Origin: Myxococcota bacterium
GTDB lineage: Bacteria > Myxococcota > UBA4151
Length of the DNA: 19,591 bases
Assembly: GCA_036338695.1 (NCBI GenBank)
Contig: JAYZBQ010000028.1
Coordinates: 1-19,591 of the forward strand
Direction: 5' to 3'
The position numbers and the translations under genes are program-made. Shown here in pieces: positions 2 to 18,913 of the stretch. Position 1 is the first letter of the stretch, and each line of letters opens with the position of its first letter. Under the pieces are notes generated by a model that saw only the letters and a program-made list of their open reading frames with translations, was not told the origin of the DNA and ran no database searches.

Positions 2-730
2 GGCTGCGGCGACGGCTCGGTCTGGGAGGGCAACGAGGAGTGCGACGACGGCAACCGCGACAACTTTGACGCCTGCCTGAACGCTTGCACCGCCGCCCGC
101 TGCGGTGACGGCGCGCAGCGCCTGGATCTGTCGGAAGGGGATGAGGGTTTTGAGGCCTGCGACGACGGCAACAGCGACTCCGATGACGCCTGCCTGACGA
201 CCTGCGAGCTGGCGCGCTGCGGCGACGGGATCCACCGCCGTGACCTCAACCCCAACCACCCAGACTTTGAAGAGTGCGATGACGGCAACGACTCCGACGA
301 TGATGAGTGCTCGACGACCTGCATCTCGCTGGGCTGCGGCAACGGCCGCCTCAACGAGGGCGAAGCCTGCGACGACGGCAACATCGAGGACGCAGACGCG
401 TGCCGCAACGACTGCACGCTTGCCGCTTGCGGTGACGGGGTCACCCGGCGCGACCTGCAGCCGGGCGAGGCGAACTATGAAGCCTGCGACGACGGCAACG
501 CGGTCGACACGGACGCGTGCACCAGCGGCTGCACCGTGGCGGTGTGCGGTGACGGGGTGGTGCGCCTTGACCTCGCCGAGGGCGCCGAGGGCTTTGAGGC
601 TTGCGATGACGGCAACGCGGTGGACGAGGACGCCTGCGTGGGTTGCCAGCCGGCGCGCTGCGGCGACGGGATCGTCCGTGAGGACCTCAACGACGGCGAT
701 GACGGCTTTGAGGAATGCGACGATGGCAAC
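2..730 (+). repeat. Diverged direct duplication of 1641-2369 (offset 1639)
   Basis: Seven consecutive repeat units are colinear between the first two genes, including distinctive ones ([66 protein letters not shown]). A 44-bp exact match links 35-78 and 1674-1717. Confidence 0.9.
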
Positions 731-1048
731 AGCGACGATGGCGATGGCTGCTCCGCTCAATGCGAGAATGAGATCACCTGCCAGCGGATGGGGTGGAAGT
801 ATGGGCGCAACAACTGGAGCTGCCCGAACGGTCTGAGGATGCCCACGCGCAACGAGTGGAACCGGGTTGAGCCCTGTGTGACGCAAGCCGATCAGGCACG
901 GTTTGGTTACTACCGAGACGTCGCCATCAGCGTCGGTGGGTGCAACTGCAAGTGGAACCGTAACTGGTGCGGTCAGCCCAGCATCGAGACGATTCGAGGT
1001 GGGCGGATGTGCGGCGATTACGACAGCCTTCACATCTGCGTTCGGTGA
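2..1048 (+). CDS. Cys-rich repeat (Myxococcus cysteine-rich/DUF4215-type) surface protein with C-terminal CLec/DUF1566-like tip; 5' end outside the window
   Basis: Frame +2 is open from base 2 ([25 protein letters not shown]...) and continuous with the listed 536..1048 ORF. Seven CDDGN units are visible, then a ~90-aa non-repeat tail with CPNGLRMPTRNEW and terminal HICVR. Confidence 0.9.
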   Translation, partial: GCGDGSVWEGNEECDDGNRDNFDACLNACTAARCGDGAQRLDLSEGDEGFEACDDGNSDSDDACLTTCELARCGDGIHRRDLNPNHPDFEECDDGNDSDDDECSTTCISLGCGNGRLNEGEACDDGNIEDADACRNDCTLAACGDGVTRRDLQPGEANYEACDDGNAVDTDACTSGCTVAVCGDGVVRLDLAEGAEGFEACDDGNAVDEDACVGCQPARCGDGIVREDLNDGDDGFEECDDGNSDDGDGCSAQCENEITCQRMGWKYGRNNWSCPNGLRMPTRNEWNRVEPCVTQADQARFGYYRDVAISVGGCNCKWNRNWCGQPSIETIRGGRMCGDYDSLHICVR

Positions 1049-1139: not shown

Positions 1140-3416
1140 ATGCGCTGGTGCCTGCCCCTGTGCCTCTTTGTTGCCGCCGCTGGCTGTTCATCGCCTGATC
1201 CGGAAAGCCAGGCACGCTGCGGCGATGCGCGCCTTGGCGCAGGGGAGGAATGTGACGACGGCAACAGCGTCGATGACGACGCCTGCACCAACGCCTGTAC
1301 CCAGGCGGCGTGCGGCGACGGGATCCTGCGCACCGACCTCGCCGAGGGCGTCCTCGGCGCCGAAGGGTGTGATGACGGCAACGATTTTGACGGCGACGGC
1401 TGCTTGACCACGTGCGTGGTGGCAACCTGCGGTGATGGCGTTCTGCGCACGGACCTGAGCGTCGACGATGAGGGCTATGAAGCCTGTGATGATGGCAACG
1501 ACGAGGACTGGGATGGCTGCAACACCCGCTGCGAGGCCATCGGCTGCGGTGACGGCGTGGTTCAGCCTGAGATGGGCGAGGCCTGTGACGACGGCAACGA
1601 GATCGACACCGACGCATGCACCAACCGCTGCCGACCTGCAGGGTGCGGCGACGGCTCCGTCTGGGAGGGCCAGGAGGAGTGCGACGACGGCAACCGCGAC
1701 AACTTTGACGCCTGCCTCAACGCCTGCACCGTTGCGCGCTGCGGTGACGGCGCGGCGCGGATGGATCTGTCGGAGGGTGAGGCGGGTTATGAAGCCTGCG
1801 ACGATGGCAACAGCGACTCCGATGATGCCTGCTTGACCGACTGCAGCGCGGCGCGCTGCGGTGACGGGGTGTACCGACGCGACCTCAACCCTTCGCATCC
1901 CGACTTTGAGGAGTGCGATGATGGCAACGACTCCGACGATGATGAGTGCTCGAGCGAGTGCGTCTCGCTGGGCTGCGGCAACGGGCGCCTCAATGACGGG
2001 GAGGCTTGTGACGACGGCAACATTGAAGACGCCGACGCCTGCCGAAACGACTGCACGCTCGCAGCCTGCGGTGATGGGGTCCTCAGGCGCGACCTGGAGC
2101 GCGGCGAGGAGGGTTTTGAGGCGTGCGATGACGGCAACGTCGTGGACACCGACACCTGCACATCGCTCTGCCTGGCAGCGACCTGCGGCGACGGGTTTGT
2201 GCGCCAAGACCTCGCTGAGGACCACGAAGACTTCGAGGTCTGTGATGACGGCAACGCGCAGGACGATGACGCCTGCTTGGGCTGTCAGCCCGCTCGGTGT
2301 GGTGACGGCGTCGTGCGCACGGATCTGCAGGACGGCGAGGACGGCTTTGAGTCGTGCGATGACGGCAACGACGTCAACGATGACGCATGCCCTGACAGCT
2401 GCCTCTCGGCGCGTTGCGGCGACGGGATCCGGCGAGCTGACCTCGATGAGAACGCCCAAGGCTATGAGGCTTGTGATGACGGCAACGAGCTGCAGACGGA
2501 CGCCTGCTTGAACAACTGCGTGCTGGCGCGCTGCGGCGACGGCTTGCAGCGCCTGGATCTACAGCCCGGTCAGGACGGGTACGAAGCCTGCGATGACGGA
2601 AACCAAGTCCAGAGCGACGCCTGCCTGTCCAACTGTGCGGTCGCCGCGTGCGGTGACGGTCAGGTGCGCGCAGGGGTCGAAGCCTGCGACGACGGCAACC
2701 AGGTCGACACCGATCAATGCCGCAACAGCTGCGTCGAGGCGCGCTGCGGCGACGGTGTGGTCTACGCAGGGTTTGAGGGCTGCGATGACGGCAATCAGGT
2801 GCAAGACGACGGCTGCAACAACCTCTGCCGTTTAGGCTCATGTGGCAACGGTCAGGTCGATCAAGGCGAGCCCTGTGACGACGGCAACAACGACGACGAC
2901 GACGCCTGTCGCAACGCGTGCGCAGCGGCAGCCTGCGGCGACGGCGTAACCCGGGTAGACCTGCAAGAAGGTCAGGCGGGTTACGAGAGCTGCGACGATG
3001 GCAACTTGGTGGACGGTGACGGCTGCTCGGCAGCCTGCTTGAGCGAGCGCCCGCCCCTGAATCAAGATCTTGGCGCTGAGGGCAACGGGGTGGTGCCGAT
3101 TGCCTTCTGCGGCTTCGCACAAGGGCGGGCGGCGCCGGGCGCGCCGCTCGAGCGCGTCGGGATCTACAATTCGCGTCGCACGCCTCGCGAGCGGCACATG
3201 GGGCACGCCAACTGGGACAGCTTCTGCCGAGCGAACGGCTGGCGCGCCTCGAATTCAGGCTACGGTAACTGGAACCACGACTGCGCCCGCGTGATGACCT
3301 ACTGGTCGGATCGCAACGTCGGTACGGGCCGCGGGCCCCACCAGTCCAACAGCTACCCGCCCAACCGTCAGGCGACGAGTCACATCTACATGACCTGCAT
3401 TGGGGGTCAGGATTGA
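1140..3416 (+). CDS. Lipoprotein with 17 Cys-rich CDDGN repeats and a unique ~125-aa C-terminal domain
   Basis: GGAG at 1130-1133 before the ATG; lipobox signal MRWCLPLCLFVAAAG-C; 17 CG(D/N)x..ExCDDGNxxxxDxC units counted; Arg/Asn/Trp/Gly-rich tail from ~3039. Confidence 0.92.
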   Translation: MRWCLPLCLFVAAAGCSSPDPESQARCGDARLGAGEECDDGNSVDDDACTNACTQAACGDGILRTDLAEGVLGAEGCDDGNDFDGDGCLTTCVVATCGDGVLRTDLSVDDEGYEACDDGNDEDWDGCNTRCEAIGCGDGVVQPEMGEACDDGNEIDTDACTNRCRPAGCGDGSVWEGQEECDDGNRDNFDACLNACTVARCGDGAARMDLSEGEAGYEACDDGNSDSDDACLTDCSAARCGDGVYRRDLNPSHPDFEECDDGNDSDDDECSSECVSLGCGNGRLNDGEACDDGNIEDADACRNDCTLAACGDGVLRRDLERGEEGFEACDDGNVVDTDTCTSLCLAATCGDGFVRQDLAEDHEDFEVCDDGNAQDDDACLGCQPARCGDGVVRTDLQDGEDGFESCDDGNDVNDDACPDSCLSARCGDGIRRADLDENAQGYEACDDGNELQTDACLNNCVLARCGDGLQRLDLQPGQDGYEACDDGNQVQSDACLSNCAVAACGDGQVRAGVEACDDGNQVDTDQCRNSCVEARCGDGVVYAGFEGCDDGNQVQDDGCNNLCRLGSCGNGQVDQGEPCDDGNNDDDDACRNACAAAACGDGVTRVDLQEGQAGYESCDDGNLVDGDGCSAACLSERPPLNQDLGAEGNGVVPIAFCGFAQGRAAPGAPLERVGIYNSRRTPRERHMGHANWDSFCRANGWRASNSGYGNWNHDCARVMTYWSDRNVGTGRGPHQSNSYPPNRQATSHIYMTCIGGQD

Positions 3417-4516
3417 GGCTGCGACAGCTCGGGGTCCTCAGCGCGCTGAGCTGGGCAGCCCTCGGTTGTCAGCCACCGGTTGAGGCCGGCTGCGAGGGCG
3501 CCGAGTTCGTGGCGCTCGAGGGCGAAGGCGCCGTGGCGGTGCCGGCGGGCGTGCGGCGCTTTAACCGCTTCGGGATGAACGTTGAGATCTGGTACCCGGG
3601 TGTTCCAGGCAGTGAGGCGGGCAGGGAACCACACGTCTATGACCTGCGGCGCTACTTGCCGCCCGAGGAGGCGGCGAAGGTCAGCGATGCGCAGAACCCG
3701 TGGCAGCCATGCCCCTGCTATGACGGGCTCCCGCTCGACACCCGCCGGGGTCCTTACCCTGTGATCGTGTTCATCCACGGAACGGCGGGTTATGCAGCCC
3801 AGAGCGCACAGCTCACGGCGTATTGGGCGAGCCAAGGTTTTGTGGTGATCGCCATGGATCACCCGGGCATTTATCTGACCGACCTGCTGGCGCTGAACAT
3901 GGCGCCTCGGCAAGCTGACGATGTACGCGAGCTGCTCGCCGACCTGCGCGCCTTTCGAGGTGGCTTCGCCGAGCTTGAGGGCGCCGTCGACCTACAGCGC
4001 ATCGCGATCACGGGTCACAGCGCGGGGGGCTACGCGTCGGGCGAGCTCGGCGATGAGCAGGGGGTCCAGCTGTTGATGCCCATGGCGGCGGGCGGCACCT
4101 CGGCGGCGGGTCCCATGAGCCTTATTTTAGGGGCTGTCGACGACCAGGTCGTCCCCTACGCTGACGCTGAGTCCGGTTACGAACAGACGCCGGGTGAGAA
4201 GCTCTTGGTGGGGCTCAACAACGCAGGTCACCTTGCCTTTAGTGACCTGTGCGCCATGGGCAGCGACCAAGGCGGGTTGGTGGTCATTTTGCAAGAGACG
4301 GGGATCTCGATACCGGACGCAGCGGGTGATCTGGTCGAGCGTCTCGGCACCGACGGATGCGCTGAAGGTCAGATGAGCCCAGAGCGGGGCTGGGCGATCA
4401 CGCAAGCCGTCACCGGCAGCTACCTGAGCGCTCGGCTGCAGTGCCGCGGCGAGGAGATGTCGGCTGAAGCCATCGCCGCAGCCTTCGGAGACGATGTCAC
4501 CGTGCGCGCTCCGTAA
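3413..4516 (+). CDS. Lipoprotein alpha/beta-hydrolase (PAF-acetylhydrolase/chlorophyllase-like)
   Basis: TTG start overlaps the upstream TGA; lipobox AALG-C; PVIVFIHG, GFVVIAMDHPG, nucleophile GHSAG, Asp in GAVDDQVV, His in AGHLAFSD. Confidence 0.85.
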   Translation: MRLRQLGVLSALSWAALGCQPPVEAGCEGAEFVALEGEGAVAVPAGVRRFNRFGMNVEIWYPGVPGSEAGREPHVYDLRRYLPPEEAAKVSDAQNPWQPCPCYDGLPLDTRRGPYPVIVFIHGTAGYAAQSAQLTAYWASQGFVVIAMDHPGIYLTDLLALNMAPRQADDVRELLADLRAFRGGFAELEGAVDLQRIAITGHSAGGYASGELGDEQGVQLLMPMAAGGTSAAGPMSLILGAVDDQVVPYADAESGYEQTPGEKLLVGLNNAGHLAFSDLCAMGSDQGGLVVILQETGISIPDAAGDLVERLGTDGCAEGQMSPERGWAITQAVTGSYLSARLQCRGEEMSAEAIAAAFGDDVTVRAP

Positions 4517-5708
4517 ACCGGATCGGCAGAGTCTTGATCCCGGCGATAAAGTTGGAGCGCAGGCGGCGCACGTCGCCGGCTTGCTCGATCGATGTCATGC
4601 GCTCAGCCATCGCCTCAAAGAGGAGGCGGATCTCAAGCCGAGCCAGACTCGAGCCGAGGCAAAAGTGCTCGCCGACGCCAAAGGCGAGGTGCTCGTTGGG
4701 GCTGCGGGTGATGTCAAAGCGGAACGGGTCTTCAAAGCGCGCTTCGTCGCGGTTGGCGCTGGTATAAAACAGGGCGATCTTGTCGTTCTCTTTCATCTCG
4801 ACGCCATGGAAGTTCAGGTCCCGCGTGCAGGTGCGGCGCATGTAGATCACCGGCGTTGACCAGCGTAAAATTTCCTCCGTAGCGCTGCCAGCCAGGCTCG
4901 GGTCGTCAACGAGCCGTTGCCACTGGTCAGGGTGCTCGAGCATGGCGAGCAAACCGCTCGAGATGGCGTTGCGAGTGGTCTCGTTGCCGGCGACGCTGAG
5001 CAGCAAAAAGAAGGCGTTGAACTCGGCCTCAGTGATCGCCTCGCCGTCGACCTCGGCGTTGAGCAAGACGTGGATCAGATCATCTGCGCGGCGACCGCCG
5101 CGCCCCTCGACGAGCTCTTGGGCATACTGCCAGAGCTCCATCGCAGCGATCCGGGAGTCGTCGATCGAGGTTTGGACTTCTGGGTCGTCAAAGCCGATCA
5201 GGCGGTTCGTCCAGTCAAAGATGAGCTGAAAATCCGAGTCCGGGATGCCCACCAACCGACAGATCACCCGCAGCGGCAGCTCGGCGGCGACCTCGCGGAC
5301 AAAGTCGATCTCACCGAGCGGGAGGATGCGGTCCATGATCTCGTCGATGTCGTCGCGGATGCGCGTCTCCATCAGGCGCACCATCCGCGGGGTGAAACCC
5401 CGGCTCACCAGCTTACGGAATTTGGAGTGCTGCGGTGGGTCCATGTTGAGCATCAGCTGACGGATCGGGAACAGGTCTTCGTCGGCGTAATCATCGAGCG
5501 TGGTGCCGCCGCGCCAGGACGAGAAGTCTTGAGGGTTCTTGGACATCTCGGCGATGTGATCGGCTTTGGTGATCGCCCAGAACGGTCGCCCGTTCGGCAT
5601 CTCGTGGCGGAAGATCGGCTCCTGGTTGCGCAGCAGCGTGAGCTCGTCATGAAGGACGCGTTCAGCCCAGCTGTCCAGGTCGTAGAGATCGACGTCGGCA
5701 AGGTTCAT
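4497..5708 (-). CDS. Cytochrome P450, CYP125/CYP124/CYP142-like (steroid C26/C27 or methyl-branched lipid omega-oxidase family)
   Basis: MLNMDPPQH, RKLVSRGFTPR, I-helix VAGNETTRN, EEILR (ExxR), heme motif FGVGEHFCLG, terminal RLRSNFIAGIK; AAGGA upstream of the ATG. The subfamily is from remembered motif similarity, not a search. Confidence 0.93.
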   Translation of the reverse strand: MNLADVDLYDLDSWAERVLHDELTLLRNQEPIFRHEMPNGRPFWAITKADHIAEMSKNPQDFSSWRGGTTLDDYADEDLFPIRQLMLNMDPPQHSKFRKLVSRGFTPRMVRLMETRIRDDIDEIMDRILPLGEIDFVREVAAELPLRVICRLVGIPDSDFQLIFDWTNRLIGFDDPEVQTSIDDSRIAAMELWQYAQELVEGRGGRRADDLIHVLLNAEVDGEAITEAEFNAFFLLLSVAGNETTRNAISSGLLAMLEHPDQWQRLVDDPSLAGSATEEILRWSTPVIYMRRTCTRDLNFHGVEMKENDKIALFYTSANRDEARFEDPFRFDITRSPNEHLAFGVGEHFCLGSSLARLEIRLLFEAMAERMTSIEQAGDVRRLRSNFIAGIKTLPIRFTERAR

Positions 5709-5741
5709 AAAGGGGTCCTTTGTCGGTCATGGCTGCACGAC

Positions 5742-5755
5742 TTAAACCGGTTCGA
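5742..5755. promoter_or_regulatory. KstR-like operator box (TnnAACnnGTTnnA)
   Basis: TTAAACCGGTTCGA = T-TA-AAC-CG-GTT-CG-A, ~34 bp upstream of the P450 ATG in the divergent intergenic region. Confidence 0.6.
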
Positions 5756-5798
5756 TTTGGGATCGACAAGGGCTGAGCGGGTGATTTTGCGAACCGAT

Positions 5799-5812
5799 TG
5801 AAACATGTTCTA
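5799..5812. promoter_or_regulatory. KstR-like operator box (TnnAACnnGTTnnA)
   Basis: TGAAACATGTTCTA inside the extended dyad CGATT...AATCG (5795-5816), ~22 bp upstream of the crotonase ATG. Confidence 0.7.
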
Positions 5813-5834
5813 ATCGCTCGGCGGGAGAGCGACC

Positions 5835-6722
5835 ATGTCCGATGAGGTTCTTTTTGAGTTAGACGGTCACGTGGCGGTGGTGACGCTGAACCGTCCTACC
5901 GCGCGTAACGCCCTCAATCTCGCTGCCCTTGCAGGGTTGGCCGACGCCTGGGAGCGGATCGAGCGAGACGCCACCGTCCGCGTCGCCATCCTCACCGGCG
6001 CCGGTGGCCACTTCTGCTCAGGCAGCGACCTCAAAGACATGCACGGCGACCACAGCGCCAACCCGGTCCACAAACGCTTCGTCCCCAAAGACCAGCTCGT
6101 CGAGGCGGCGCTGACCGCGCTGCGCGAGGGGCATGAGCGCCAGGCTCAAGAGCTCCTTGAAGAGCACCAAGGACGCGCCGATGAGGTGCCGCTGCACTGG
6201 CGCGCTTTTTTGCGCGACCGCCGGCTCGCAAAGCCGCTGATCGCAGCGGTCGAGGGCTACGCGCTCGGCGGCGGCACCGAGGTGCTCCAGGCGTGCGACC
6301 TGCGCGTCGCTGGGCGCTCGGCGCAGTTTGGGCTCACCGAGGTGAAGTGGGGGCTTTTCCCCTTGGGCGGCTCGACCGCTCGGTTGCCCAAGCAGATCCC
6401 GTACACGCGTGCCATGGAGCTGTTGCTCACAGGGGCTCGTATGAGCGCTGAGGAGGCCTACCACTGCGGCTTGATCGGGCGCGTGGTTGATGACGGCGGG
6501 GCGCTCGAGTCGGCGCGTGCTTGGGCCGATCAGATCGCCGCCAACGGTCCGTTCGCGGTCCAGAGCGTACTCGCAAGCGTGCGCGCCGCCGAGGGGCTCA
6601 GCGACGCTCAAGCGGTCGCTACCGTCGACGGTCACGGCAACCCGGTGCTCTACAGTCAAGACGCTCGCGAGGGTGCGCGTGCCTTTCGAGAGCGGCGAAC
6701 TCCCGAGTTCAAGGGCGAGTGA
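5835..6722 (+). CDS. Enoyl-CoA hydratase/crotonase family, EchA19-like
   Basis: LNRP.ARNAL, ILTGAGGHFCSGSDL, RRLAKPLIAAVEGYALGGGTE, FGLTEVKWGLFPLGGS..RL..QIPYT, IAANGP.AVQ, DAREG.RAF; both catalytic Glu present; GGGAGAG upstream of the ATG. Confidence 0.92.
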   Translation: MSDEVLFELDGHVAVVTLNRPTARNALNLAALAGLADAWERIERDATVRVAILTGAGGHFCSGSDLKDMHGDHSANPVHKRFVPKDQLVEAALTALREGHERQAQELLEEHQGRADEVPLHWRAFLRDRRLAKPLIAAVEGYALGGGTEVLQACDLRVAGRSAQFGLTEVKWGLFPLGGSTARLPKQIPYTRAMELLLTGARMSAEEAYHCGLIGRVVDDGGALESARAWADQIAANGPFAVQSVLASVRAAEGLSDAQAVATVDGHGNPVLYSQDAREGARAFRERRTPEFKGE

Positions 6723-6785
6723 GGCGATTTATCCCGTTGAGAACTCGGGTGCCTTCGGCTAGGCTCTCGCCTGAGGAAAACGCCC

Positions 6786-7574
6786 ATGATGATGCTCAGT
6801 GCCGTACTTGCGCTCGCCGCACCTGCGCCGGGTGACGCGCCCGACCTTGCGATGATGGACATGAAGGCGGTCCATGGCGTCGAGGATTCGCTCGCAGCTG
6901 TTCTCAACGAGAGCTTCCTGGTGGCGCTGAAAAACAGCGGCAAGTTAGGGAACGTGGTCGGCGGTTCGGACCTGCGCGCCATGCTCGACCTCGAGCAGCA
7001 AAAGCAGGCGCTCGGTTGCGGCGACGACGGCTGCCTCGCCGAGCTCGGGGGCGCGCTGGGTGTCCCGTATCTGTTCTACACCAGCTTAGCGAAGGTCGGC
7101 TCCAAGTACGTGATGCACTACAAGGTGATGGCGGTGGAGGAGGCTAAGGTGGTCGTGCGCGGCATGAAGACGGCCGCAAGCGATGATGCGCTGCTCGAGA
7201 TGCCGCAGATTTTGGTGACGGAGGCGATGGCCGGCATGTTCCAGCAAGCGCCGTCTGCTCCAGCCACCCAACCGGCGCCTCAGGCGACGGCTACGCCATC
7301 GAGCGCGCCGAGCGCTGCGGCGCCCGCTCAGCCAAGTCAGCCGATCAAGATGAGCCGCTGGCTTGGGGTCGGGCTGACGGTCGCTGGAGGCGGATTAGCC
7401 GCTGCGGGTTACAGCGGCTTTGCCAGCGCTCGTGACAGCTACGCGGCGCTCACCGAGCCGACCAGCGCCGACTACGCCAATTATGAGGCGGCGGCTGCGC
7501 CGGCGAATTCGATGTGGATTGGCGGATTGGGGCTGGCGGTGGTCGGCGCAGGATTGGCGGTGGTCGCACCATGA
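6786..7574 (+). CDS. Secreted/membrane hypothetical protein of the myxobacterial [15 protein letters not shown] type, with Pro/Ala linker and Gly-rich hydrophobic C-terminus
   Basis: GAGG upstream; N-terminal signal; [22 protein letters not shown] motif; QPAP-rich linker; two Gly-rich hydrophobic segments; stop overlaps the next ATG (ATGA). Confidence 0.8.
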
Positions 7575-10500
7575 GGACCTTAGCGACGTGGGTATGGATC
7601 GGGAGCCTGAGCGCATGCCTTGCGCCGAGCCCTTTGGATAACCCGGTGGTCAACGCAGAGCATCAAGCCGGCGGCGCCGCCGTGTGCACGCAAGACAGCG
7701 ACTGCGACCACACCATGGTGTGTTCGGCGGGCGTCTGCCTGGCGGCGGGCGGTGACCGCGCCGTATGCGGCAACGGCGTCGTCGATGAGGGCGAGGCCTG
7801 CGACGACGGCAACGCCGAGGACAACGACGCGTGCAGCAACGCCTGCGTGGTGGCGCGCTGCGGTGACGGAGTGGTGCGAACAGACCTTGCACCCGCCGAC
7901 AGTGAGTACGAGCAGTGCGATGACGGCAACCAAGACGACACCGACGCGTGCACCAACGCCTGCCAGGTCGCACGCTGCGGCGACGGGATCGTCCGAGCCG
8001 ACGCCGACGAGGGCGAATCTTGCGATGACGGCAACGAGATCAACACCGACGCGTGCACGAACGAATGTCAGGCTGCGCACTGCGGTGACGGGATCACCCG
8101 TGAAGACGTCGCCGAGGGCGCCGAGGGCTATGAGGCGTGCGACGACGGCAACAACGACGACGATGACGCCTGCTACGACTGTCAAAACGCACGGTGCGGC
8201 GATGGCGTGGCGCGAACGGACCTCTCGGGCGCTGATGAGGGCGCCGAGGCTTGCGATGACGGAAACGAGATCGAAACAGACGGCTGTCTGAGCAGCTGCG
8301 ACCTGGCACGCTGCGGTGATGGTCACACACAAGACGGGGTCGAGGACTGCGACGACGGCGACCAGGACGACACCGACGAGTGCACCAACGCGTGTGGGGG
8401 CGCACGCTGCGGCGACGCAATCACCCGGATGGACCTTGAGGAGGGTAATGAGTTCTTTGAGGCTTGCGACGACGGCAACCAAGTGCAGACCGACGACTGC
8501 CTAAACGACTGCACCGCGGCGTCGTGCGGCGACGGCCACCTCCAAGCAGGGGTTGAAGGCTGCGACGACGGCAACGTGGACCCTGGGGACGGCTGCGACG
8601 GGCTCTGCCGCTTGGAGTCGTGCGGTAACGGGCGAGTCGATGCGGGGGAGGAATGCGATGACGGCGACCAAGACAACACCGACGCGTGCATGAACGAATG
8701 TCAGGCTGCGCGCTGCGGCGACGGTGTTGAGCGTGAAGACCTCAATGACGGGGACGAAGGCTTTGAGTCATGTGATGATGGCAACGAGATCAACACAGAC
8801 GATTGCACGAATGAATGTCAGGACGCGCGCTGCGGCGATCGCTACGTTCAAGCGGGCGTTGAAGAGTGCGATGATGGAAATCAGATCGATCAAGATCAGT
8901 GTAGAGAAAATTGCCAAACAAATAGGCTGCCGACGCTCGCAGCGGTGACGATTAGTCCTTTATCGTTGACCAAAGGAGCTTCTGCTGCCTGTGCCCCGTC
9001 ATTGCCTGGAGCAATCGATCGGGAGGGCGATGACATCGTTTACGGCTACCAATGGTTCATTGGTGGGGACGAGATCTCAACAAACCGGACGATTATTGTG
9101 ACGCATAATCCGGGTGTATCACTGGTTTGCGCGGTCACTGCGAACGATTACGAATGTGAGCTTCGTGGTCGCTGCGGAACGCCGGTCCGATCAAATCCGG
9201 TGGTCATCGGACACAGATGCGGTGACTCGGTCGTCCAACAGGGCGTTGAAGAGTGCGACGATGGTAACGAGGACAATACCGACGCTTGCGTTAACTGCAG
9301 TAACGCTCGATGCGGCGATAGTCACGTTCATGACGGCGTGGAAGCCTGTGATGATGGCAACGACAACAACAATGACCAGTGTCGAAACGATTGCACGGCT
9401 TCTGCGGTTTGCGGCAACGGCCAAGTTGAACAGGGCGAGCAGTGCGATGACGGCGACCAGGACGACACGGACGCGTGCACCAACGCCTGTCAGGCTGCAC
9501 GCTGCGGGGACGGTATTGAGCGTGAGGACCTCCAAGACGGTCAGAACGGTTTCGAGGCTTGCGATGATGGGAACAACATCGATACCGACGCCTGTTTGAC
9601 GAACTGTCAGGACGCTCGGTGCGGTGATAATCGTCTTTGGCAGGGTGAAGAAGAATGCGATGATGGAAACACCGACAACGGTGATGGATGCGATCAGAAT
9701 TGCGATATCGAAGAGCCGGATTCAGCGCTGATCACAGCGGGTGATTTTCATACCTGTGTGGTGCGCGACCTAAACGAAGACGGCAATGGGCACATCTGGT
9801 GTTGGGGCGAGAACACGCACAAACAGCTCGCTATCAACAACAATAATATCCAATTCCGAGCCCCGGCGGAGCGGATCACGAGTCAAGAACAGGCTTGGGA
9901 GGCGATCGGTGCTGGTGCACGCTTTACACACGCATCGCATGGTGCGGTGGTTTATAGTTGGGGGTCATCCATGATATCCAATAACGGCTTGGGCTGGGGT
10001 GTAAATGAGGGTGTCACTCAGTGGCAACGGTCCGAATTTGGTGCGATGCCTCTGACTCAGAGGTCTTGGGGTGAAGAGGACGTCGTCGAAATTGCTGGCG
10101 GTCATGCTATGTCCGCTTTTCGTACCGACTCTGCTGTCTATGTGGTGGGCTGTTCAATTTTCAGAAATGATTCCAACAATCTCGCTTGTCGGCCGGGTTT
10201 GAAGTGGTCAACTGAAGGCCAAGTGAACCGCGCGGAATCAATTCAAATCAGCGTGGATGGAAACGATCAAAACTTTGCAGCGGTCGACATGATGATTGGC
10301 GACAATTATCTGTGTGCCAAGCAAAGAGATAACGCAGTGTATTGTCTGGGGTCGAACATACCTGCCGTTGCGTTGGGTCGGTATAATTTTGACGGTGGTG
10401 CAACGTGGTGGCGAGGTGAGATCGCTAGGGTTCAGCACCCCCAAAACAACAATGATGATGATTGGTTACAGGCAACCGTTGAGGGTTTGGCAGCAGGCGC

Positions 10501-11026
10501 GAAAGGGCTCAATTGTGTGAACACCAACAACCAAATTCAATGCATTGGATTCCATGCCGGTCAGGTGCAGAAGATGACCATACGTCGAGGGGATGGTAAT
10601 GCCCTAATCTTGAATCAACCCCTACGCGACTTAGCCGTAGCTGAGTCGGTGGGTTGTTTTGTGGATCATGGCGGTTGCGTGAAGTGCTTTGGGTCGAACC
10701 ACGAAGGTCAACGCGGCAACGGTCAAAGAGAGAACTGCGGACAAAACCAGTGCCATTTTGACCGTGCGACACCCGTCGAAGCGTTTTGTCGACAGAACGA
10801 TCCCCTCGGTGACGGAAACATCACCAACGTAGTTGTCGGTGCGACGCACACTTGCGCGGCGACGGCGAACGGCGAAGACGTCTGGTGCTGGGGCAAAACT
10901 GATAAGGGTCAAGCGGGTTCGCAAGCACAGGGTATTTCACACTGTCTGTGTCCCGTTCAGGTCTTGTTTTCAGACAATGAGAATGAGCCTCAACCGACTT
11001 GTCCTATGGGTTGTAGCTCCAATTAG
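7571..11026 (+). CDS. Large lipoprotein (~1151 aa): 16 Cys-rich repeats, an internal Ig-like domain and a C-terminal RCC1/BLIP-II-like beta-propeller
   Basis: Start reassigned to ATG 7571 (coupled to the upstream TGA; lipobox [16 protein letters not shown]). 11 + 5 CDDG(N/D) units flank a beta-rich domain (~8921-9215). RCC1-type motifs [53 protein letters not shown]. Confidence 0.9.
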
Positions 11027-13191
11027 CTTCGGTTCCTTCGCCTCAAGCCGATCAGCCCGAGCAGCCAGAGCGCGTCGAGCCCGCCCGCGCTTGAGCAGCC
11101 GCAGCCAGCGCCCGGTGTGATCGGGGCGGGACAGCTCGGGTCGGTGCCCTCGAGCGTTGCGCAGGTCACCGGCGCGCAATCGCTCGAGCAGGATGCCAGC
11201 GCAGCGTTCGTGTTTTGCTCGCCATCATCGCAGGACTCATAGCCTGCCTCACCCTCGCTCAGGTCGTCGCGCAAGACACCGTCGCCGCAGGTCGCCAGCA
11301 CGCAGCCGTTTCGGCAGGCGTCTGTCTCGACCTCATTGGCGTCGTCGCAGCCCTCAAAGCCCTCTTCGCCAGCGCTTAGGTCCGTGCGGGTGAAGCCGTC
11401 GCCGCACTGAGCGGGGGTGCAGTCGGTTAGGCAGGCGTCGTCGTTCGCCTCGTTGCCATCATCGCAGCCCTCGAGGCCTGCGCGCAGATAGCCGTCGCCG
11501 CAGACAGCCGTGACACACCCTGAGACGCAGCCGTCGCTGTCCGAGCTGTTGCCGTCGTCGCACGCCTCCACGCCGGCTTGAACGTAGCCGTCACCGCAGC
11601 GCGCCGGCTGGCAGTCGGCGCAGGCGTCGGTGGTGTCCTCGTTGCCGTCATCGCAGCGCTCAAAGCCGTCATCACCATCTGGGATGTCTGTCCGCACGAC
11701 GCCGTCGCCGCAGCGCGCCGGCTGGCAGACGTTGGTGCAGGCGTCGTCGTCGGCTTCGTTGCCGTCGTCGCAGCCCTCGACGCCCAAGAACACCACCCCA
11801 TCCCCGCAGCGCGCAGGGGTGCACGCCCCGGTGCAGGCGTCGTTCTCCACAGCGTTGCCGTCGTCACATGCCTCGTCCTCGCCATGCACGAAGCCATCGC
11901 CGCAAGCCGCCGGGACGCAGCCCTCGACGCAGTCGTCACCGTTGTCTTGGTTGCCGTCATCGCAGGCCTCAAAACCCTCGGCGCCCTCTTCAAGGTCGGT
12001 TCGCACCACCCCGTCGCCGCAGACCGCCAGCAGGCAACCGGCTCGGCAGGCGTCGGTGTCGACGTCGTTGCCGTCGTCACAGGCCTCAAAGCCCTCCTCC
12101 TCAGGGGCTCGATCGGTGCGCCGGATCCCGTCGCCGCAGCGCGCTTGGACGCAGGAGGCGGTGCAGCCGTCGGTGTCGAGCTCGTTGCCGTCGTCACAGG
12201 CCTCAAAGCCTTCGTCGCCTGGGGCGAGGTCGCCTCGCTGGATGCCGTCGCCGCATGCGGCCTGCGCGCAGCTGCTCGTGCAGGCGTCTTCATCGACCTG
12301 GTTGCCGTCATCGCAAGCCTCAAAGCCGTCCTGACCGGCTTGTAGGTCGTCGCGGACGACGCCGTCGCCGCAGGCGGCGAGGCTGCAGTCGTTCTTGCAG
12401 CCGTCGGTGTCGACCTCGTTGCCGTCGTCGCAGGCTTCGTTGGTGTCGACGTGCTCGTTGCCGCAGGCGCGCTCAAGGCACGAGTTGGCACAGGCGTCGT
12501 CGTTGTCCCGGTTGCCGTCGTCGCAGTCTTCGTCCTCGTCGACGATCCCGTTGCCGCAGTTGGAGCTGTTCCCCCAGATCAAGGTGTCGCTCATTACGGT
12601 CGAGCCGCCTTGGCTGATCGTCGCGCCCGCCATGGCGTCGTCGTTGCAATAGAAGAACAGGGCGATCGGCTCGTCGGTCTCAAGACCGACAAAGCGGGAG
12701 TCGGAGCGAGGGGTCCAGCGCACCTGGCCGAGCAGGCGCCCTTCGGCGTTGAAGGCGACGAGGTATTGGGTGCCGTTGCGCCCGGCGGTCAGCCCGATCT
12801 GATTGACGGGGCGGTCAAAGGTACCCATCGGACAAAACCAGATGGTGTTTCCTGCGGCGACACCGCCAGCGCTCGTGTTGGGGAAATAGTTGCCCGGGTT
12901 CGGGCGGCACATCGGGCGCGCAAGGTTGCCTCGGACCAGCTGGTTTTGACCGTGATAGAGCCCGGGGCGGACCCGCTGGATGTCGCCGTTATGGAGCGTC
13001 AGACCGTCGGCAGCGTAGGTGTCGTTGCGCTGACCGTTGCCGCAGTAGCTCGTCCAGTCGGCGGTCCCGAGCGGTCGCCCGTTGAGGATGTCGTCTGCGT
13101 GATTCAGGGCGCGCACCTCGCCTTGCGCGGTCACGGTACCCGCCGCGGCGGGCAGGGCGAAGAGGGTCAAAGACAGCGCCAGAGATCGCAT
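11023..13191 (-). CDS. MYXO-CTERM-anchored surface protein (~722 aa): N-terminal beta-sandwich-like domain plus 13 Cys-rich repeats
   Basis: Start reassigned to ATG 13191 (AAGGAG 5 nt upstream; signal [17 protein letters not shown]). 13 CDD(G/A)(N/E) units. C-terminus [29 protein letters not shown] = GCGC + hydrophobic helix + Arg cluster. Confidence 0.9.
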
Positions 13192-13220
13192 AGGGGCTCC
13201 TTGCTTGGAGCCCAAGCCTA
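13191..13220 (-). promoter_or_regulatory. RBS-occluding hairpin with a mutually exclusive alternative stem
   Basis: The mRNA reads UAGGCUUGGGCUCCAAGCAAGGAGCCCCUAUG: GGGCUCC/GGAGCCC covers the SD, and GCUUGG/CCAAGC is an alternative stem. Confidence 0.4.
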
Positions 13221-13240
13221 ACGAAAAATCGGCGCGCTTC

Positions 13241-14233
13241 CTAGGCGTCGAGCCCTTGCTCGAGCCGCTCATACTGCGAGTCGGTGTAGAACTGTTTGAC
13301 CCACTTTCGGAAGATCCCGATGGGGCCGTCACCGTCGCAGAGCACCGGAGGCGAGATGTAGATCTTGTTCTCCCAGATCGGGATGTCTTGCTCGAGCTCG
13401 CGGATCACTGCGGCGCGAAATTTGGACGAGACCAGCTCGAGCATCGCCGGGTCATCGATCATCGAGCCGCCTAAGGTCTTGCGCAGCATAAAGTTGAAGC
13501 GCACGTGCACACGCTCGCCGTCGATGGGGGTCGATGAGGAGACCAGACAGGTCTCAGCGATCCCAAAAAACCGGGTCTGCGTGTAGCCAAAGCCGTAGAG
13601 GTCCGAGGTGATTTTGCCTTCGACCGGCATGCCCTTGTAGGTCATGGTCGCTGGGCTCTTCATGTGCAGGATATGCCCCTCGCGCTCGGCCTCGGTCGGC
13701 GGGATGTTTTGGGTGCCGTGCAGGTAGTGGAAATGCGCTGAGTCCACGGCGTTCTCCGCCATCTCCTGGTTGTGCGTACGGATGATCCAGTCCTTGCGGG
13801 TGTAGTCGGTCCACTCGGGGTGGCCGTACTCGGGCGCCTCGGGCGGGTCCCAGTGCGGCGCCTCGCCGTCGGGGTGGTACCAAGCCAGCACCAGCCCGCT
13901 GCGCTCGACCACGTGCCAAGCCCTCGTGTCCGCTCTTTTGGGCTGCCGGGTGGCGTAGGGCACGTCGGTGCAAGCGCCCGTGCAATCAAATTTCCAGGCA
14001 TGGAACGGGCAGACGACCGAGTTGCCCTCCACGCGGCCGCCGTGCCCGAGGTGTGCGCCGAGGTGTGGACAATAGGCGTCGAGCAGACCTAGCTTTTGGT
14101 CCTCGCCGCGAAAGAGCACCAGGTGTTGTCCAAAATAATGAAGCGGGACGACGGCGCCGACGTCTAGGTCTTCACTGTAGGCGATCTGAAACCAACCGAC
14201 GGGAAACGAGGGCATGGGGAAGCGACGCGTCAT
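13241..14233 (-). CDS. Rieske non-heme iron oxygenase, KshA (3-ketosteroid 9-alpha-hydroxylase)/Neverland-like
   Basis: Start reassigned to ATG 14233 (GGAG 5 nt upstream; ~330 aa). Rieske CPHLG...CPFH; mononuclear Fe motif ENAVDSAHFHYLH; C-terminal QDIPIWENK..PPVLCDGDGPI..FRKWVKQFY. Confidence 0.92.
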   Translation of the reverse strand: MTRRFPMPSFPVGWFQIAYSEDLDVGAVVPLHYFGQHLVLFRGEDQKLGLLDAYCPHLGAHLGHGGRVEGNSVVCPFHAWKFDCTGACTDVPYATRQPKRADTRAWHVVERSGLVLAWYHPDGEAPHWDPPEAPEYGHPEWTDYTRKDWIIRTHNQEMAENAVDSAHFHYLHGTQNIPPTEAEREGHILHMKSPATMTYKGMPVEGKITSDLYGFGYTQTRFFGIAETCLVSSSTPIDGERVHVRFNFMLRKTLGGSMIDDPAMLELVSSKFRAAVIRELEQDIPIWENKIYISPPVLCDGDGPIGIFRKWVKQFYTDSQYERLEQGLDA

Positions 14234-14882
14234 AACATCTCCGTGTGCGCCCGCCTCGGACGCCCGCTCGGCGAAGACTAGAACATGTTCTAGTTGGGGG
14301 AGGCAAGGGCGCAAGGGCGGCGCCTGGGCGCTGCTGCTCGTTTTGCTCGCCTCGGTCTCGCCGGCGGCTGCGAAGACCTCTTCTGAGGTCATTGCGGCGT
14401 CGAGCCAGCCGGTCGTGCGCGTGACCCCGGTCAAGGGGTCGTCGGCGCCCAAGTTGACCATCGAAGTGCTCGTCGATGCGCCGATCGAGAAGGTCGCTCG
14501 TGTGGTGGGCGCCTGCAGCGACTACGTTGGCGTCATCCCTCGCGTCCAGAAGGTGATCCTGCACAAGCGGGGCGTGCCGCATCACGTCTGCGAGCTCTTC
14601 CTCGACATGCCGTTTCCCTTCGCAGATGTCCGCTCGACCATCGGCTACACGGGCAGCGTGACCGCCGATGAGGTGGTGATGCGTTACCAGCAGGTCCGCG
14701 GCGACTATCGTGTGCACGACGGCATGTGGCGACTGCGGGCGCAAGGTCGCCAAACGCACATGCGCTACAGCCTGCACATCGACTTAGGGCAGCCGCTGCC
14801 TAAGTGGATCATCAATATCTTCACAAAGGACGCGCTGCGGCAGACGGTCAAAGAGGTCGCCCGCCGAGCGCAGGCGCTCTAG
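14214..14882 (+). CDS. Secreted SRPBCC/START-fold (polyketide cyclase-like) lipid-binding protein; start uncertain
   Basis: Signal-like WALLLVLLASVSPAAA; VLVDAPIEKV..VV...DY...IP.V; GD....DGMWRL; T.MRY...ID.G.PLPKWIIN. The start is problematic (see findings). Confidence 0.72.
   Translation: MGKRRVITSPCAPASDARSAKTRTCSSWGRQGRKGGAWALLLVLLASVSPAAAKTSSEVIAASSQPVVRVTPVKGSSAPKLTIEVLVDAPIEKVARVVGACSDYVGVIPRVQKVILHKRGVPHHVCELFLDMPFPFADVRSTIGYTGSVTADEVVMRYQQVRGDYRVHDGMWRLRAQGRQTHMRYSLHIDLGQPLPKWIINIFTKDALRQTVKEVARRAQAL
14277..14294. promoter_or_regulatory. Perfect 18-bp palindrome containing a KstR-like operator box
   Basis: ACTAGAACATGTTCTAGT is its own reverse complement; core 14279-14292 = T-AG-AAC-AT-GTT-CT-A; ~45 bp upstream of the Rieske ATG. 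Confidence 0.75.
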
Positions 14883-15918: not shown

Positions 15919-17904
15919 ATGATGAGGCGCGCAGGACTGCTGATGTTGATCGCAGCGTGTTCGACTGAACCGGAGCTGGAACCCTTGGACTTTGCAGACG
16001 GCTGCCAGCCGTTGTTTGCGGGCGAGGAGTGCTTGCTCCCTTATCCCAGCGACTACTTTTTGGTCGATGATCCCAGCCAGCCGTCGGGCAAACGCGTTGC
16101 GATCTCGGGGGCGGCGGAGGTCGTGAGCGACCAGCTGCAGAACGTCGACTCGGGCGTCTTTCGGCCTCAGGATGGCTTCTCGCGCAACCCGACTATTTTG
16201 TTTTCGTTGCTCGAGGAGACGGACGGCGTGGGGCTCGTGCGGCTCGACGATGACTACGAGACCAGCCGTGACCCTTCGACCAGCGCCACCGTGCTGATCG
16301 AGGCGGGCACTGGTCGACGCATCGCCCACTTCGTCGACATCGACCCGATCCCGGCCGAAGGGACGCCGCGCGGGCTGATGATCCGCCCGCTCGAAGAGCT
16401 GCTGCCGCAGACGCGTTACGTCGTCGGCGTGCACGGCCTTGCGGGCACCCAAGGTGTGATCGCTGCGCCGGAGGGGTTTCGGCGACTGCGCGACCAGCAG
16501 AGCGGCCAAGATCCGCTGCTCGAGGCGCTGCAGGCGCGCTACGATGAGACGATTTTCGCGCCGCTCGAGCGCGCGGGGCTCGAGCGCGGCGTCTTGCAGC
16601 TCGCGTGGGATTTCACGACGGCGAGCGATGAGAGCGTCACCGGCGACATGATGCGTGTGCGGGAGCTGACGCTCGAGTGGCTGCAGACGCAGACGCCTGC
16701 GGTGCGCGTGACCGAAGTGCGTGAGTTCAACAACGAGTCACGCGGGATCTGGCGCTACGTCTACGGCAAGATCACCGGGCCCCGCTTTGTCGAGTCCAAT
16801 GAGCTCGGCGCTTGGCTGCACAAGCCGCAAGGCCAGGTGGAGCAAAATGGCGAGTTTGAGTTCTCGTTTATCGTGGCGGTGCCCAATGCGCTCAAGACCC
16901 ACTTTGAGCCAGGGCGTGCGATCGGTTACGGGCACGGCTTCTTCGGCTCGTACCGCGAGGTCGAGGCGGGATCGGTGGCTGGGATCGCCAACCATCTCAA
17001 GACGATCGTGATCGGGATCCCGTGGACTGGGATGACCGAGGTCGACGCGGCGGTGCTCGTGGGCGATATGGTCGACGAGCCCGGTCAGATGATCCGCTTT
17101 GGCGAGCGAGTCCACCAGGCGCAGGCGAACTGGTTGGTCACGACGCAGGTGGTCAAGAATCAACTCTTTGGGCTGCCCGAGCTGCGGCGGCCGACAGAGG
17201 AGGGCGCTGACGGCGTGGTGGTCAACGAGCAAGGTGAATCCAACGCCGGACAAGCCCTCTACGACCCGAGCTGGATTGGCTACATTGGGATCAGTCAGGG
17301 GCATATTCTTGGCGGCACGACCGCTGCCCTGAACCCCGATTTTGATCGCGTCGTGCTCAACGTCGGCGGCTGCGCCTTTACCCATATGATGAGCCGCTCC
17401 TCGAACTTTAGTTACTACCTGATGCTGATCGATACGCTGACGCTCGCAGACCCCTTTGAGCGGCAGAAGATGCTGGCGATGATGCAGCCGATTTTTGATC
17501 GCTTTGACCCCGCGACCTACGCCAAGTACGTCCTGCGCGAAAAGCTCCCAGGCAGCCCAGAAGACCGCCGGGTTCTGATGCAGACGGGCTTTGCGGACCC
17601 ACAGGTGCCGGACTTCACAGCGCAGCTTCACGCCCGCTTGCTCGGGATCCCGGTGCTCGAGCCGAGCCCCGAGGTCATGTGGGGACTTGAGACCACCACG
17701 TCGCCAGCGCCTGGCAGCGCCTTCACCTACTTTAAGTATGACGTCGACGCTGCGTTTCGTCAGGTCGCCCAGCCCACCGATGAGGGCAACGAGGTGCACG
17801 AAGGCATCCGGCGGCTCGACGTCACCAAGCAACAACTCGACGCCTTCTTGCGCCCGGGTGGGGTGATCGAACACTTCTGCGAGGGGCCGTGTGATCCGGA
17901 CTGA
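15919..17904 (+). CDS. Large lipoprotein alpha/beta-hydrolase (extracellular lipase/esterase-like) with N-terminal beta domain
   Basis: Lipobox LIAA-C; CLLPYPSDYF, DGFS, IRP...L.P.TRY.V; YGHGFFGS; nucleophile GISQG; Asp in GFADPQV; His in NEVHEG. Confidence 0.85.
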   Translation: MMRRAGLLMLIAACSTEPELEPLDFADGCQPLFAGEECLLPYPSDYFLVDDPSQPSGKRVAISGAAEVVSDQLQNVDSGVFRPQDGFSRNPTILFSLLEETDGVGLVRLDDDYETSRDPSTSATVLIEAGTGRRIAHFVDIDPIPAEGTPRGLMIRPLEELLPQTRYVVGVHGLAGTQGVIAAPEGFRRLRDQQSGQDPLLEALQARYDETIFAPLERAGLERGVLQLAWDFTTASDESVTGDMMRVRELTLEWLQTQTPAVRVTEVREFNNESRGIWRYVYGKITGPRFVESNELGAWLHKPQGQVEQNGEFEFSFIVAVPNALKTHFEPGRAIGYGHGFFGSYREVEAGSVAGIANHLKTIVIGIPWTGMTEVDAAVLVGDMVDEPGQMIRFGERVHQAQANWLVTTQVVKNQLFGLPELRRPTEEGADGVVVNEQGESNAGQALYDPSWIGYIGISQGHILGGTTAALNPDFDRVVLNVGGCAFTHMMSRSSNFSYYLMLIDTLTLADPFERQKMLAMMQPIFDRFDPATYAKYVLREKLPGSPEDRRVLMQTGFADPQVPDFTAQLHARLLGIPVLEPSPEVMWGLETTTSPAPGSAFTYFKYDVDAAFRQVAQPTDEGNEVHEGIRRLDVTKQQLDAFLRPGGVIEHFCEGPCDPD

Positions 17905-18913
17905 GCGCTCGGCTGTCATCGCCGCGTTGGCGATGGTTTGTGTCGGGTGCTCGTCGCCCTCCTTGCCCGGAGTGGACGCGGGGGCGGCGCCACCTGATGC
18001 GTCGCCTTTGACCGATGCGTCGCCGGGAGACGCTGGGCGGCTTGATGGTGGCTGGCTCGATGCGAGCGGCTTTGATGGGGGAGACCGCCCCGACGCAGGG
18101 GCAGACGATGACGCAGGTCAAGCGCTGGGGGCTGAGTGTGCCTCGCTTCCGCCGGGCTACGCCAAGCAGCTCTGCCTGAAGCCGTGGATTCAAGACCTGG
18201 CCCGACGGCTCGGGCCAGCCGACGCGCTCTGCCAAGCCGAGGAGCTCCTCGAGCGGGGCGAGGTGAGTGACTGTCACCTGCTCGCTCATTTTGTCGGCGA
18301 GGTGGTCTTTGAGCAGCAAGAGCAGGACGCCGCGAGGAGTTTGGTGGCGTGCCCCGCGACCTGTCTGTCGGGTTGCGGTCATCAGGTCATGCAGGAGGTG
18401 GTCGAGCAGCGCGGGCTCAACCGTATCTTTCGAGAGCAAGGCAGCGAGGCGGTCGATCAGGAGCTGCGTCAGCTCGTCCGCCTGTGCCGAGACTACGAGG
18501 ACGATGACCCGGATCAGTTTGCGCTGTGCATCCATGGCATTGGGCACGGGCTCTTGAGCAGCGGATTCTTGGGGCCGGTGGAGGCAGCTGAGCTCTGTGA
18601 TCAAGAGCTTGGCGTGGAGGGCTTCGCCTGCGCCTCGGGCGTCTTTATGGAGTACACCAGCCGGTACATCCGGCTCGATGAGGCGCAGCTGCTCGAGAGC
18701 TTACCGACGATCTGCGAGCTCGGCGGCAATCAGTGGGAGGACTTGTGCTGGCGAAACGTCGGTGAGTCGCTGATGTGGTTTTACGGACACCAGCTCGAAC
18801 GGGTTGTGGGGCGGTGCAACCGGCTCCCCGTCAGCGATGACGCCAAGGCGTGCCGAGAGGGCGCCGAGGTGGAAGCTGGCGTCGCCGATATGCAGCGCAA
18901 CACCTGCCCTTAA
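17891..18913 (+). CDS. Hypothetical lipoprotein with repeated Cys/His helical motifs
   Basis: GTG start overlaps the upstream gene end; lipobox VCVG-C; DAG-rich linker; CHLLAHFVG, GCGHQVM, CIHGIGHG, CASGVFME, CWRNVG. Confidence 0.78.
   Translation: MIRTERSAVIAALAMVCVGCSSPSLPGVDAGAAPPDASPLTDASPGDAGRLDGGWLDASGFDGGDRPDAGADDDAGQALGAECASLPPGYAKQLCLKPWIQDLARRLGPADALCQAEELLERGEVSDCHLLAHFVGEVVFEQQEQDAARSLVACPATCLSGCGHQVMQEVVEQRGLNRIFREQGSEAVDQELRQLVRLCRDYEDDDPDQFALCIHGIGHGLLSSGFLGPVEAAELCDQELGVEGFACASGVFMEYTSRYIRLDEAQLLESLPTICELGGNQWEDLCWRNVGESLMWFYGHQLERVVGRCNRLPVSDDAKACREGAEVEAGVADMQRNTCP

Follow-up and report, generated by a model that had tools for sequence, protein, structure and literature searches.

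Steroid degradation by the 9,10-seco pathway has been described in Actinobacteria and Proteobacteria, whose degraders carry the pathway gene families in clusters (PMC5790920, PMC4810484). In a 2018 survey, the degraders named are confined to Actinobacteria and alpha/gamma-Proteobacteria (PMC5790920); Myxobacteria and Deltaproteobacteria are not mentioned in the main texts of PMC5790920 and PMC4810484, the supplements of which may list further taxa. The KstR (Rv3574) regulon of M. tuberculosis and M. smegmatis is characterized by an operator core, given by Kendall et al. as TnnAACnnGTTnnA, by a TetR-type regulator gene preceded by its own box, and by targets of the echA19, fadD19, ltp3/4 and fadE types (PMC1995591). 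The described steroid regulators of Proteobacteria are TeiR, HsdR and TesR, not KstR (PMC8399759, PMC6678751). Here we describe a locus of a Myxococcota bacterium that shares these features of the KstR regulon. The window, i.e. the whole stretch of 19,591 nt that was analyzed (GenBank assembly GCA_036338695.1, contig JAYZBQ010000028.1), is the entire contig C28 of a 3.36 Mb genome (93.6% complete; hereafter G000). In this window, KstR-type boxes precede genes for sterol-type enzymes, downstream of which lie the genes of two large surface proteins. A placement in Myxococcota is also what the repeat family, the atlas taxa of the membrane partner and the named homologues of the Rieske and TetR proteins would suggest. 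We consider it probable that the KstR-type steroid-catabolism regulon is real and that the two surface genes are passengers, each relying chiefly on its own promoter. The comparison covers three congeners (G001-G003), a genome of a sister genus in the same family (G004) and a second family (f24).

A first-pass annotation of the window had reported three boxes, and these are present: a weaker box on the side of the P450 gene (5742..5755), a strong box ahead of the crotonase gene (5799..5812) and a perfectly palindromic one (14279..14292), which lies 45 nt ahead of the start of the Rieske gene, all fit TnnAACnnGTTnnA. The loose form of the pattern is not striking by itself, as it has 26 matches in G000 vs 1-19 for other spacings; the strict form is. 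Eleven of the 14 near-strict sites (at most one mismatch) in G000 are intergenic, box 14279 being counted after correction of the Rieske start, and mostly precede lipid and steroid (9,10-seco) catabolic genes, with one ahead of a KstR-like TetR gene. Against this number of about 11, the further sites of the two mycobacterial species number 16 and 31 (PMC1995591). Strict boxes number 7-14 in five of six genomes of this family and 12-16 in five of six of f24, and at most four in each of the remaining 289 of the 301 genomes of the phylum. The 5799 box is kept in all five genomes aligned and lies between the -35 and -10 elements of the predicted crotonase promoter, which scores 8.8 in a genome-specific promoter model trained without the window contig. 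The 14279 box is conserved in G001-G003 and present ahead of the G004 Rieske orthologue; the 5742 box persists in G001 and G002, has decayed in G003 and is missing from G004. The window boxes are likely to be real operators of a KstR-type steroid-catabolism regulon. Three sites that carry a box in congeners have none at the orthologous positions in G000 (C13:27276-27363, C58:40539-40650 and C98:61809-61935), an apparent turnover of operators within the genus.

We scanned 84 proteins around the near-strict sites for family matches. The box-led operons encode HsaA/C/D/E/G/F-, FadD19-, Ltp3/4-, FadD3- and IpdAB/C-like proteins, along with the TetR protein itself and another KshA-like protein; ChsH2- and SCP2-like proteins are also among the 84, and a KstD-like gene lies in the same cluster. 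Members of the 9,10-seco set (KstD, KshA, HsaA/C/D and C/D-ring homologues) were found as best-family matches, those to the ring A/B models scoring below curated cut-offs; the models that pass are FadD19-type PRK07798, Ltp3-type PRK08313, FadD3, PRK07938, PRK08290, PRK07801 and PRK07831. Some boxes lead other genes, namely those for a pectinacetylesterase-like protein, MurB, an AI-2E transporter and small cytochrome-like proteins. HsaA-like genes (E<=1e-80) occur in 11 of the 301 genomes; this family and f24 account for four each, and the remaining three, with weaker matches, lie elsewhere.

The TetR gene (G000 C13:23932-24510) has its own box at 24537, and a box also precedes its orthologue in G001-G004; each of five genomes tested holds one orthologue. 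Its best PDB matches are KstR structures (E 1.2e-15, full length), followed by KstR2 (2.3e-7) in the N-terminal half only, and the protein carries PF17925. It differs from mycobacterial KstR in lineage and in scoring 81.9 bits against the curated KstR family NF033703, the cut-off of which is 280. A scan of named genomes for this TetR gave four loci, only one of them close (69%). Contig C13 overlaps contig C78 by 141 nt and has no overlap with the window contig. C13 and the window each end within a repeat gene, and the matching G001 gene spans both parts; therefore, the window probably adjoins the main steroid cluster. The window is likely one end of a steroid-catabolism cluster with predicted KstR-type operators at its promoters. 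On C78, the fadD3 and ipdAB operons (L034:4707-13836) carry a KstR-type box, likewise in G001, G002 and G004, whereas these C/D-ring operons belong to KstR2 in actinobacteria (PMC4810484, PMC6678751); one repressor may cover the targets that KstR and KstR2 divide there. The C/D-ring operon is followed by genes for an F420-dependent oxidoreductase of the Rv3520c family and cofE/cofD (L034:13836-17704). In f24, genes for an MMPL protein with a sterol-sensing domain, a LolA-like protein and a DUF1302 protein lie in or beside box-led operons (L067:6404-11002, L069, L070, L076) and are a candidate sterol uptake system.

Gene calls and domain scans bear out the gene order and strands that the first-pass annotation had described. 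On the plus strand, the crotonase gene (5835..6722) is followed by those of a membrane partner protein (6786..7574) and a 1151-aa lipoprotein (7571..11026), the start of which was set at 7571 so as to overlap the partner stop. On the minus strand, the Rieske gene (13241..14233) is followed by that of a 722-aa surface protein (11023..13191). The gaps behind the two enzyme genes measure 63 bp (6723-6785) and 49 bp (13192-13240), as reported, and a terminator scan agrees that neither holds a stem followed by a U-tract. Their description as short did not stand: among 1,973 same-strand gaps in G000 the median is 14 bp, 62% are shorter than 49 bp and 68% shorter than 63 bp, so that both gaps are long by the standard of this genome. 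Only 60 of 688 convergent gene ends have a stem and U-tract, and the absence of terminators from the two gaps is hence uninformative. As convergent pairs usually abut or overlap here (185 of 344 overlap), the tail-to-tail centre of the layout is expected, and the mirror image follows from this together with two divergent boxed promoters.

In the same-strand gaps of G000, the motif TTG-N20-TAnnnT has 29 occurrences in the sense orientation and none in antisense, and we therefore regard it as the promoter signature of this genome. In the 63-bp gap, a predicted sigma70-type promoter of the partner and lipoprotein genes (6737..6765, plus strand) consists of TTGAGA (-35, 6737-6742), a 17-bp spacer and TAGGCT (-10, 6760-6765). 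This footprint is conserved in all three congeners; the promoter scores 18.7 in G000 and 13.5-18.1 in the congeners, and 0 of 519 antisense control gaps reach 18.7. The built-in promoter scan had missed it because TAGGCT matches TATAAT at only three of six positions. With this conserved predicted promoter, the idea that the locus was designed to co-express sterol enzymes with adhesins is not supported; independent promoters in the gaps were among the outcomes that the first-pass annotation had named as refuting it, and for this half of the layout that outcome is seen. The result for the other gap is different: the 49-bp gap holds a conserved -10-like word, TAGGCT (13215..13220, minus strand), 23 nt ahead of the surface protein start. 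TAGGCT or TAGGAT stands at this fixed spacing in G000-G002 and has decayed in G003, which lacks the surface gene. A score of the -10 alone was rejected as non-discriminating, since 4.1% of 222 gaps reach 8 in sense and antisense alike. RNA folding of six gap sequences gave no conserved structure, and a hairpin that covers the ribosome site of the 722-aa protein gene was discarded because neither G001 nor G002 keeps it.

Several observations weigh against the surface genes being passengers. The 49-bp gap has no good -35, and its full promoter score is 4.0. The promoter model is insensitive, with scores of 4.1, 5.9 and 0.0 for the P450, Rieske and TetR promoters; as it misses these, the score of the 49-bp gap neither shows nor excludes a promoter. 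Even where a gene has its own promoter, read-through from the boxed promoters is possible, and both the promoters and repressor binding are predictions from sequence. The Rieske gene and the 722-aa protein gene are kept together in three of four congeneric genomes, and the order crotonase-partner-lipoprotein in all four. With gap limits of 150-200 bp, four of 19 box-led runs of genes extend to a repeat gene, and with a limit of 100 bp three of 19 do so, compared with 2-6% of background runs (P 0.001-0.05). In G004, the gene of a lipoprotein that combines a single cysteine repeat with a C-type lectin domain (L058:15655-16596, minus strand) is divergent from the boxed hsa operon, and in G001 and G002 a gene of the partner family is divergent from the hsa box at the same position.

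Part of this evidence would suit an alternative in which co-transcription with the Rieske gene brings the 722-aa surface protein, and it alone, into the sterol regulon of the genus. The tail of this protein (GCGC, a hydrophobic stretch and RRR) is found in no other repeat protein of G000; it resembles the C-terminal pattern of MYXO-CTERM proteins (a GC-C motif, a hydrophobic helix and a basic tail), and we call it MYXO-CTERM-like on this pattern. An NCBIfam scan (E<=0.01) of the protein listed the repeat model only and no MYXO-CTERM model. G000, G001 and G002 all retain its pairing with the Rieske gene, the proteins being 65-74% identical, and the lack of a convincing -35 in the 49-bp gap is compatible with co-transcription. 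However, the -10-like word is conserved exactly where the gene is present and decayed where it is missing, and the gene is absent from this place in both G003 and G004. Its N-domain occurs in four of 301 genomes, i.e. in G000-G002 at this locus and in G051 in an unrelated context, where the homologue has no Rieske neighbour within the 2.4 kb fetched. We regard this alternative as unlikely. A single-sequence structure model of the N-domain was unusable (pLDDT 39.6), and its atlas matches were all below 0.9.

A related proposal is that the KstR-type switch has captured at least one surface protein in this genus, the CTERM-type protein being transcribed with the Rieske gene and surface genes recurring beside boxes. 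If this were so, sterol would cause the cell to expose a surface protein that binds particles derived from eukaryotes, linking sterol sensing to attachment. We consider this rather unlikely. Two of the four box-led runs that reach a repeat gene are the window locus itself; in the other two, the DNA just ahead of the repeat gene scores 11.3 and 12.7 in the promoter model, and one of these runs is interrupted by opposite-strand genes in G001 and G002. The steroid cluster holds five repeat genes among 72 (expected 2.3, P=0.083; P=0.39 without the two of the window), which is unremarkable given the size of the family. A repeat motif lies within 6 kb downstream of three of 14 boxes in G001, three of 11 in G002, two of seven in G003, one of seven in G004 and none of 31 in f24, where 31 of 72 boxes were fetched and many contigs are short; the boxes concerned in G001-G004 are mostly orthologous sites.

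Repeat genes are numerous in this genome. The DUF4215/TIGR02232 cysteine-repeat family comprises 91 of 2,766 gene calls and about 6% of G000, with varied heads at the C-terminus; the gene count comes from our own annotation, in which some calls are halves split at contig ends, as many contigs break inside repeat genes. Each of five relatives has 560-1,180 DNA copies of the repeat motif; the gene caller trained on G000 misses many genes in G005 and f24, for which repeats were counted by DNA motif. Like the myxobacterial TIGR02232/DUF4215 proteins, these proteins combine the repeat with a signal peptide or lipobox and variable terminal domains, and they differ by a very large expansion. The lipoprotein of the window has 16 cysteine-acidic repeats of this family and an RCC1-like head (~9700-11026, plus strand). 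The GC3 of the head is 0.54 vs 0.78 in the stalk and ~0.8 in neighboring genes, pointing to a recent exchange or to more rapid evolution of this part; its identity is 43% to G001 and 78% to G003. A low-GC head that differs between congeners is as expected for a variable tip, adhesion being the role we infer. The membrane partner has a C-terminal hydrophobic hairpin and about 18 paralogues, identified by paralogue search; because paralogues directly precede repeat genes at three other loci, partner and lipoprotein form a recurring unit. In the atlas, the partner falls in clusters mostly of Myxococcota, and its N-domain is CsgG/LpoB-like (score 0.90-0.91), which we treat as a lead only. The 722-aa protein comprises a signal peptide, the unclassified N-domain, 11 cysteine repeats and the tail. 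Two further DUF4215/TIGR02232 repeat genes occupy the left end of the window (2-1048 and 1140-3416). Lipoprotein-like genes at 15919-17904 and 17891-18913, both on the plus strand, are conserved in G001 and G003; neither Pfam nor NCBIfam gave a match for them at E<=0.01.

The enzymes of the window are of sterol type, as the first-pass annotation had proposed, and their assignment bears on whether the substrate of the regulon is a sterol or, in an alternative that we judge quite unlikely, another isoprenoid or a methyl-branched lipid. The CYP125-like P450 (4497..5708, minus strand; Pfam p450, heme motif FGVGEHFCLG) has its best PDB matches in CYP125MRCA (E 1.6e-141), CYP124 (3.8e-98) and CYP125 (2.3e-92). 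CYP124 ranks slightly above modern CYP125, as a non-sterol substrate would allow; however, the reconstructed CYP125 ancestor is the closest match by far, and the enzyme is likely a steroid side-chain C26 oxidase. The crotonase, an EchA19-like enoyl-CoA hydratase, reaches 324 bits with NCBIfam PRK07799 (cut-off 316) and 329.5 bits with the EchA19 model NF051848, which is below the cut-off of 400; echA19 is a KstR target in mycobacteria (PMC1995591). The Rieske oxygenase (330 aa; Pfam Rieske and KshA_C), the start of which was set at 14233 because the start codon and ribosome site are conserved there in an alignment of four genomes, best matches KshA in the PDB (E 4e-49). With 131 bits for KshA_C vs 199 bits for the second copy, it is the less KshA-like of the two, and a KshA-type reaction is putative. 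A Neverland/DAF-36-like sterol desaturase role is conceivable, purely as a lead. That the HsaA, HsaC, HsaD, KstD, EchA19 and KstR models are all under curated cut-offs would likewise suit a non-sterol substrate. Against it stand the co-occurrence of side-chain, A/B-ring and C/D-ring gene sets and the FadD19-, Ltp3-, FadD3-type and other models that pass. Divergent from the Rieske gene, a protein with a signal-peptide-like N-terminus (14309..14882, plus strand) has a START/SRPBCC fold in its structure model (pLDDT 92.6), matching START/SRPBCC lipid-binding proteins (PDB 3qsz, 2d4r) with TM up to 0.80 for 3qsz; none of the top matches listed pointed specifically to a sterol-binding protein known from bacteria. 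Its start codon is uncertain: the ATG of G001 and G002 aligns with CGC in G000, in which the start may be lost or non-canonical.

The first-pass annotation had proposed a candidate system in which both boxed promoters co-express a sterol enzyme with an adhesin for attachment to sterol-bearing prey or particles. The same-strand order without a terminator, its retention in congeners, the nominal excess of repeat genes behind boxes and a variable head typical of binding proteins all fit such a system. We nevertheless hold it to be very unlikely, since the lipoprotein side has the conserved, predicted separate promoter, terminators are rare throughout the genome, and adhesion by this repeat family is itself an inference. 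The layout is also poorly kept outside G000. The complete layout recurs in G001; in G002, its two halves are found on different short contigs. G003 has the lipoprotein gene, but the CTERM-type gene is missing between that gene and the Rieske gene. In G004, the P450, crotonase and Rieske genes are in the company of steroid genes and are not followed by a repeat gene. Linkage in relatives holding the regulon, which such a system would predict, is seen within the genus only, with none in G004 or the f24 loci fetched. The sister genus and f24 keep the regulon without the adhesin layout, which occurs in a single genus and is not complete even in that genus. That the genes respond to or modify sterols of the cell itself, conceivable because some Myxococcota make sterols (10.1101/2024.11.01.621555), is scarcely credible, as the gene set is degradative and no PF13243 squalene/oxidosqualene cyclase domain was found in any of the five genomes searched (G000, G001, G002, G004 and G065).

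Since no sterol cyclase domain was found, the sterol would be external. By analogy with mycobacterial KstR, the TetR protein would repress the boxed promoters, and the P450 and a CoA ligase would convert external sterol to a side-chain acyl-CoA that would release TetR from the boxes; the side chain and the ring would next be attacked by the EchA19-like and KshA-like enzymes. The surface genes, as members of a cysteine-repeat family of about 90 genes, would be expressed mainly from their own promoters, and any read-through into them would be incidental.

The KstR-type switch itself is familiar, and its occurrence in Myxococcota was not found in the literature searched: we found no paper joining KstR and Myxococcota, and related searches returned no relevant work. 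Sterol-induced adhesion would matter more if true; the half of it that depends on the 63-bp gap fails, and the half that depends on the 49-bp gap is considered unlikely. With repeat genes this abundant and terminators this scarce, adjacency by itself carries little weight in these genomes. A KstR-type regulon in two families of a sterol-making phylum would widen the list of environmental sterol degraders.

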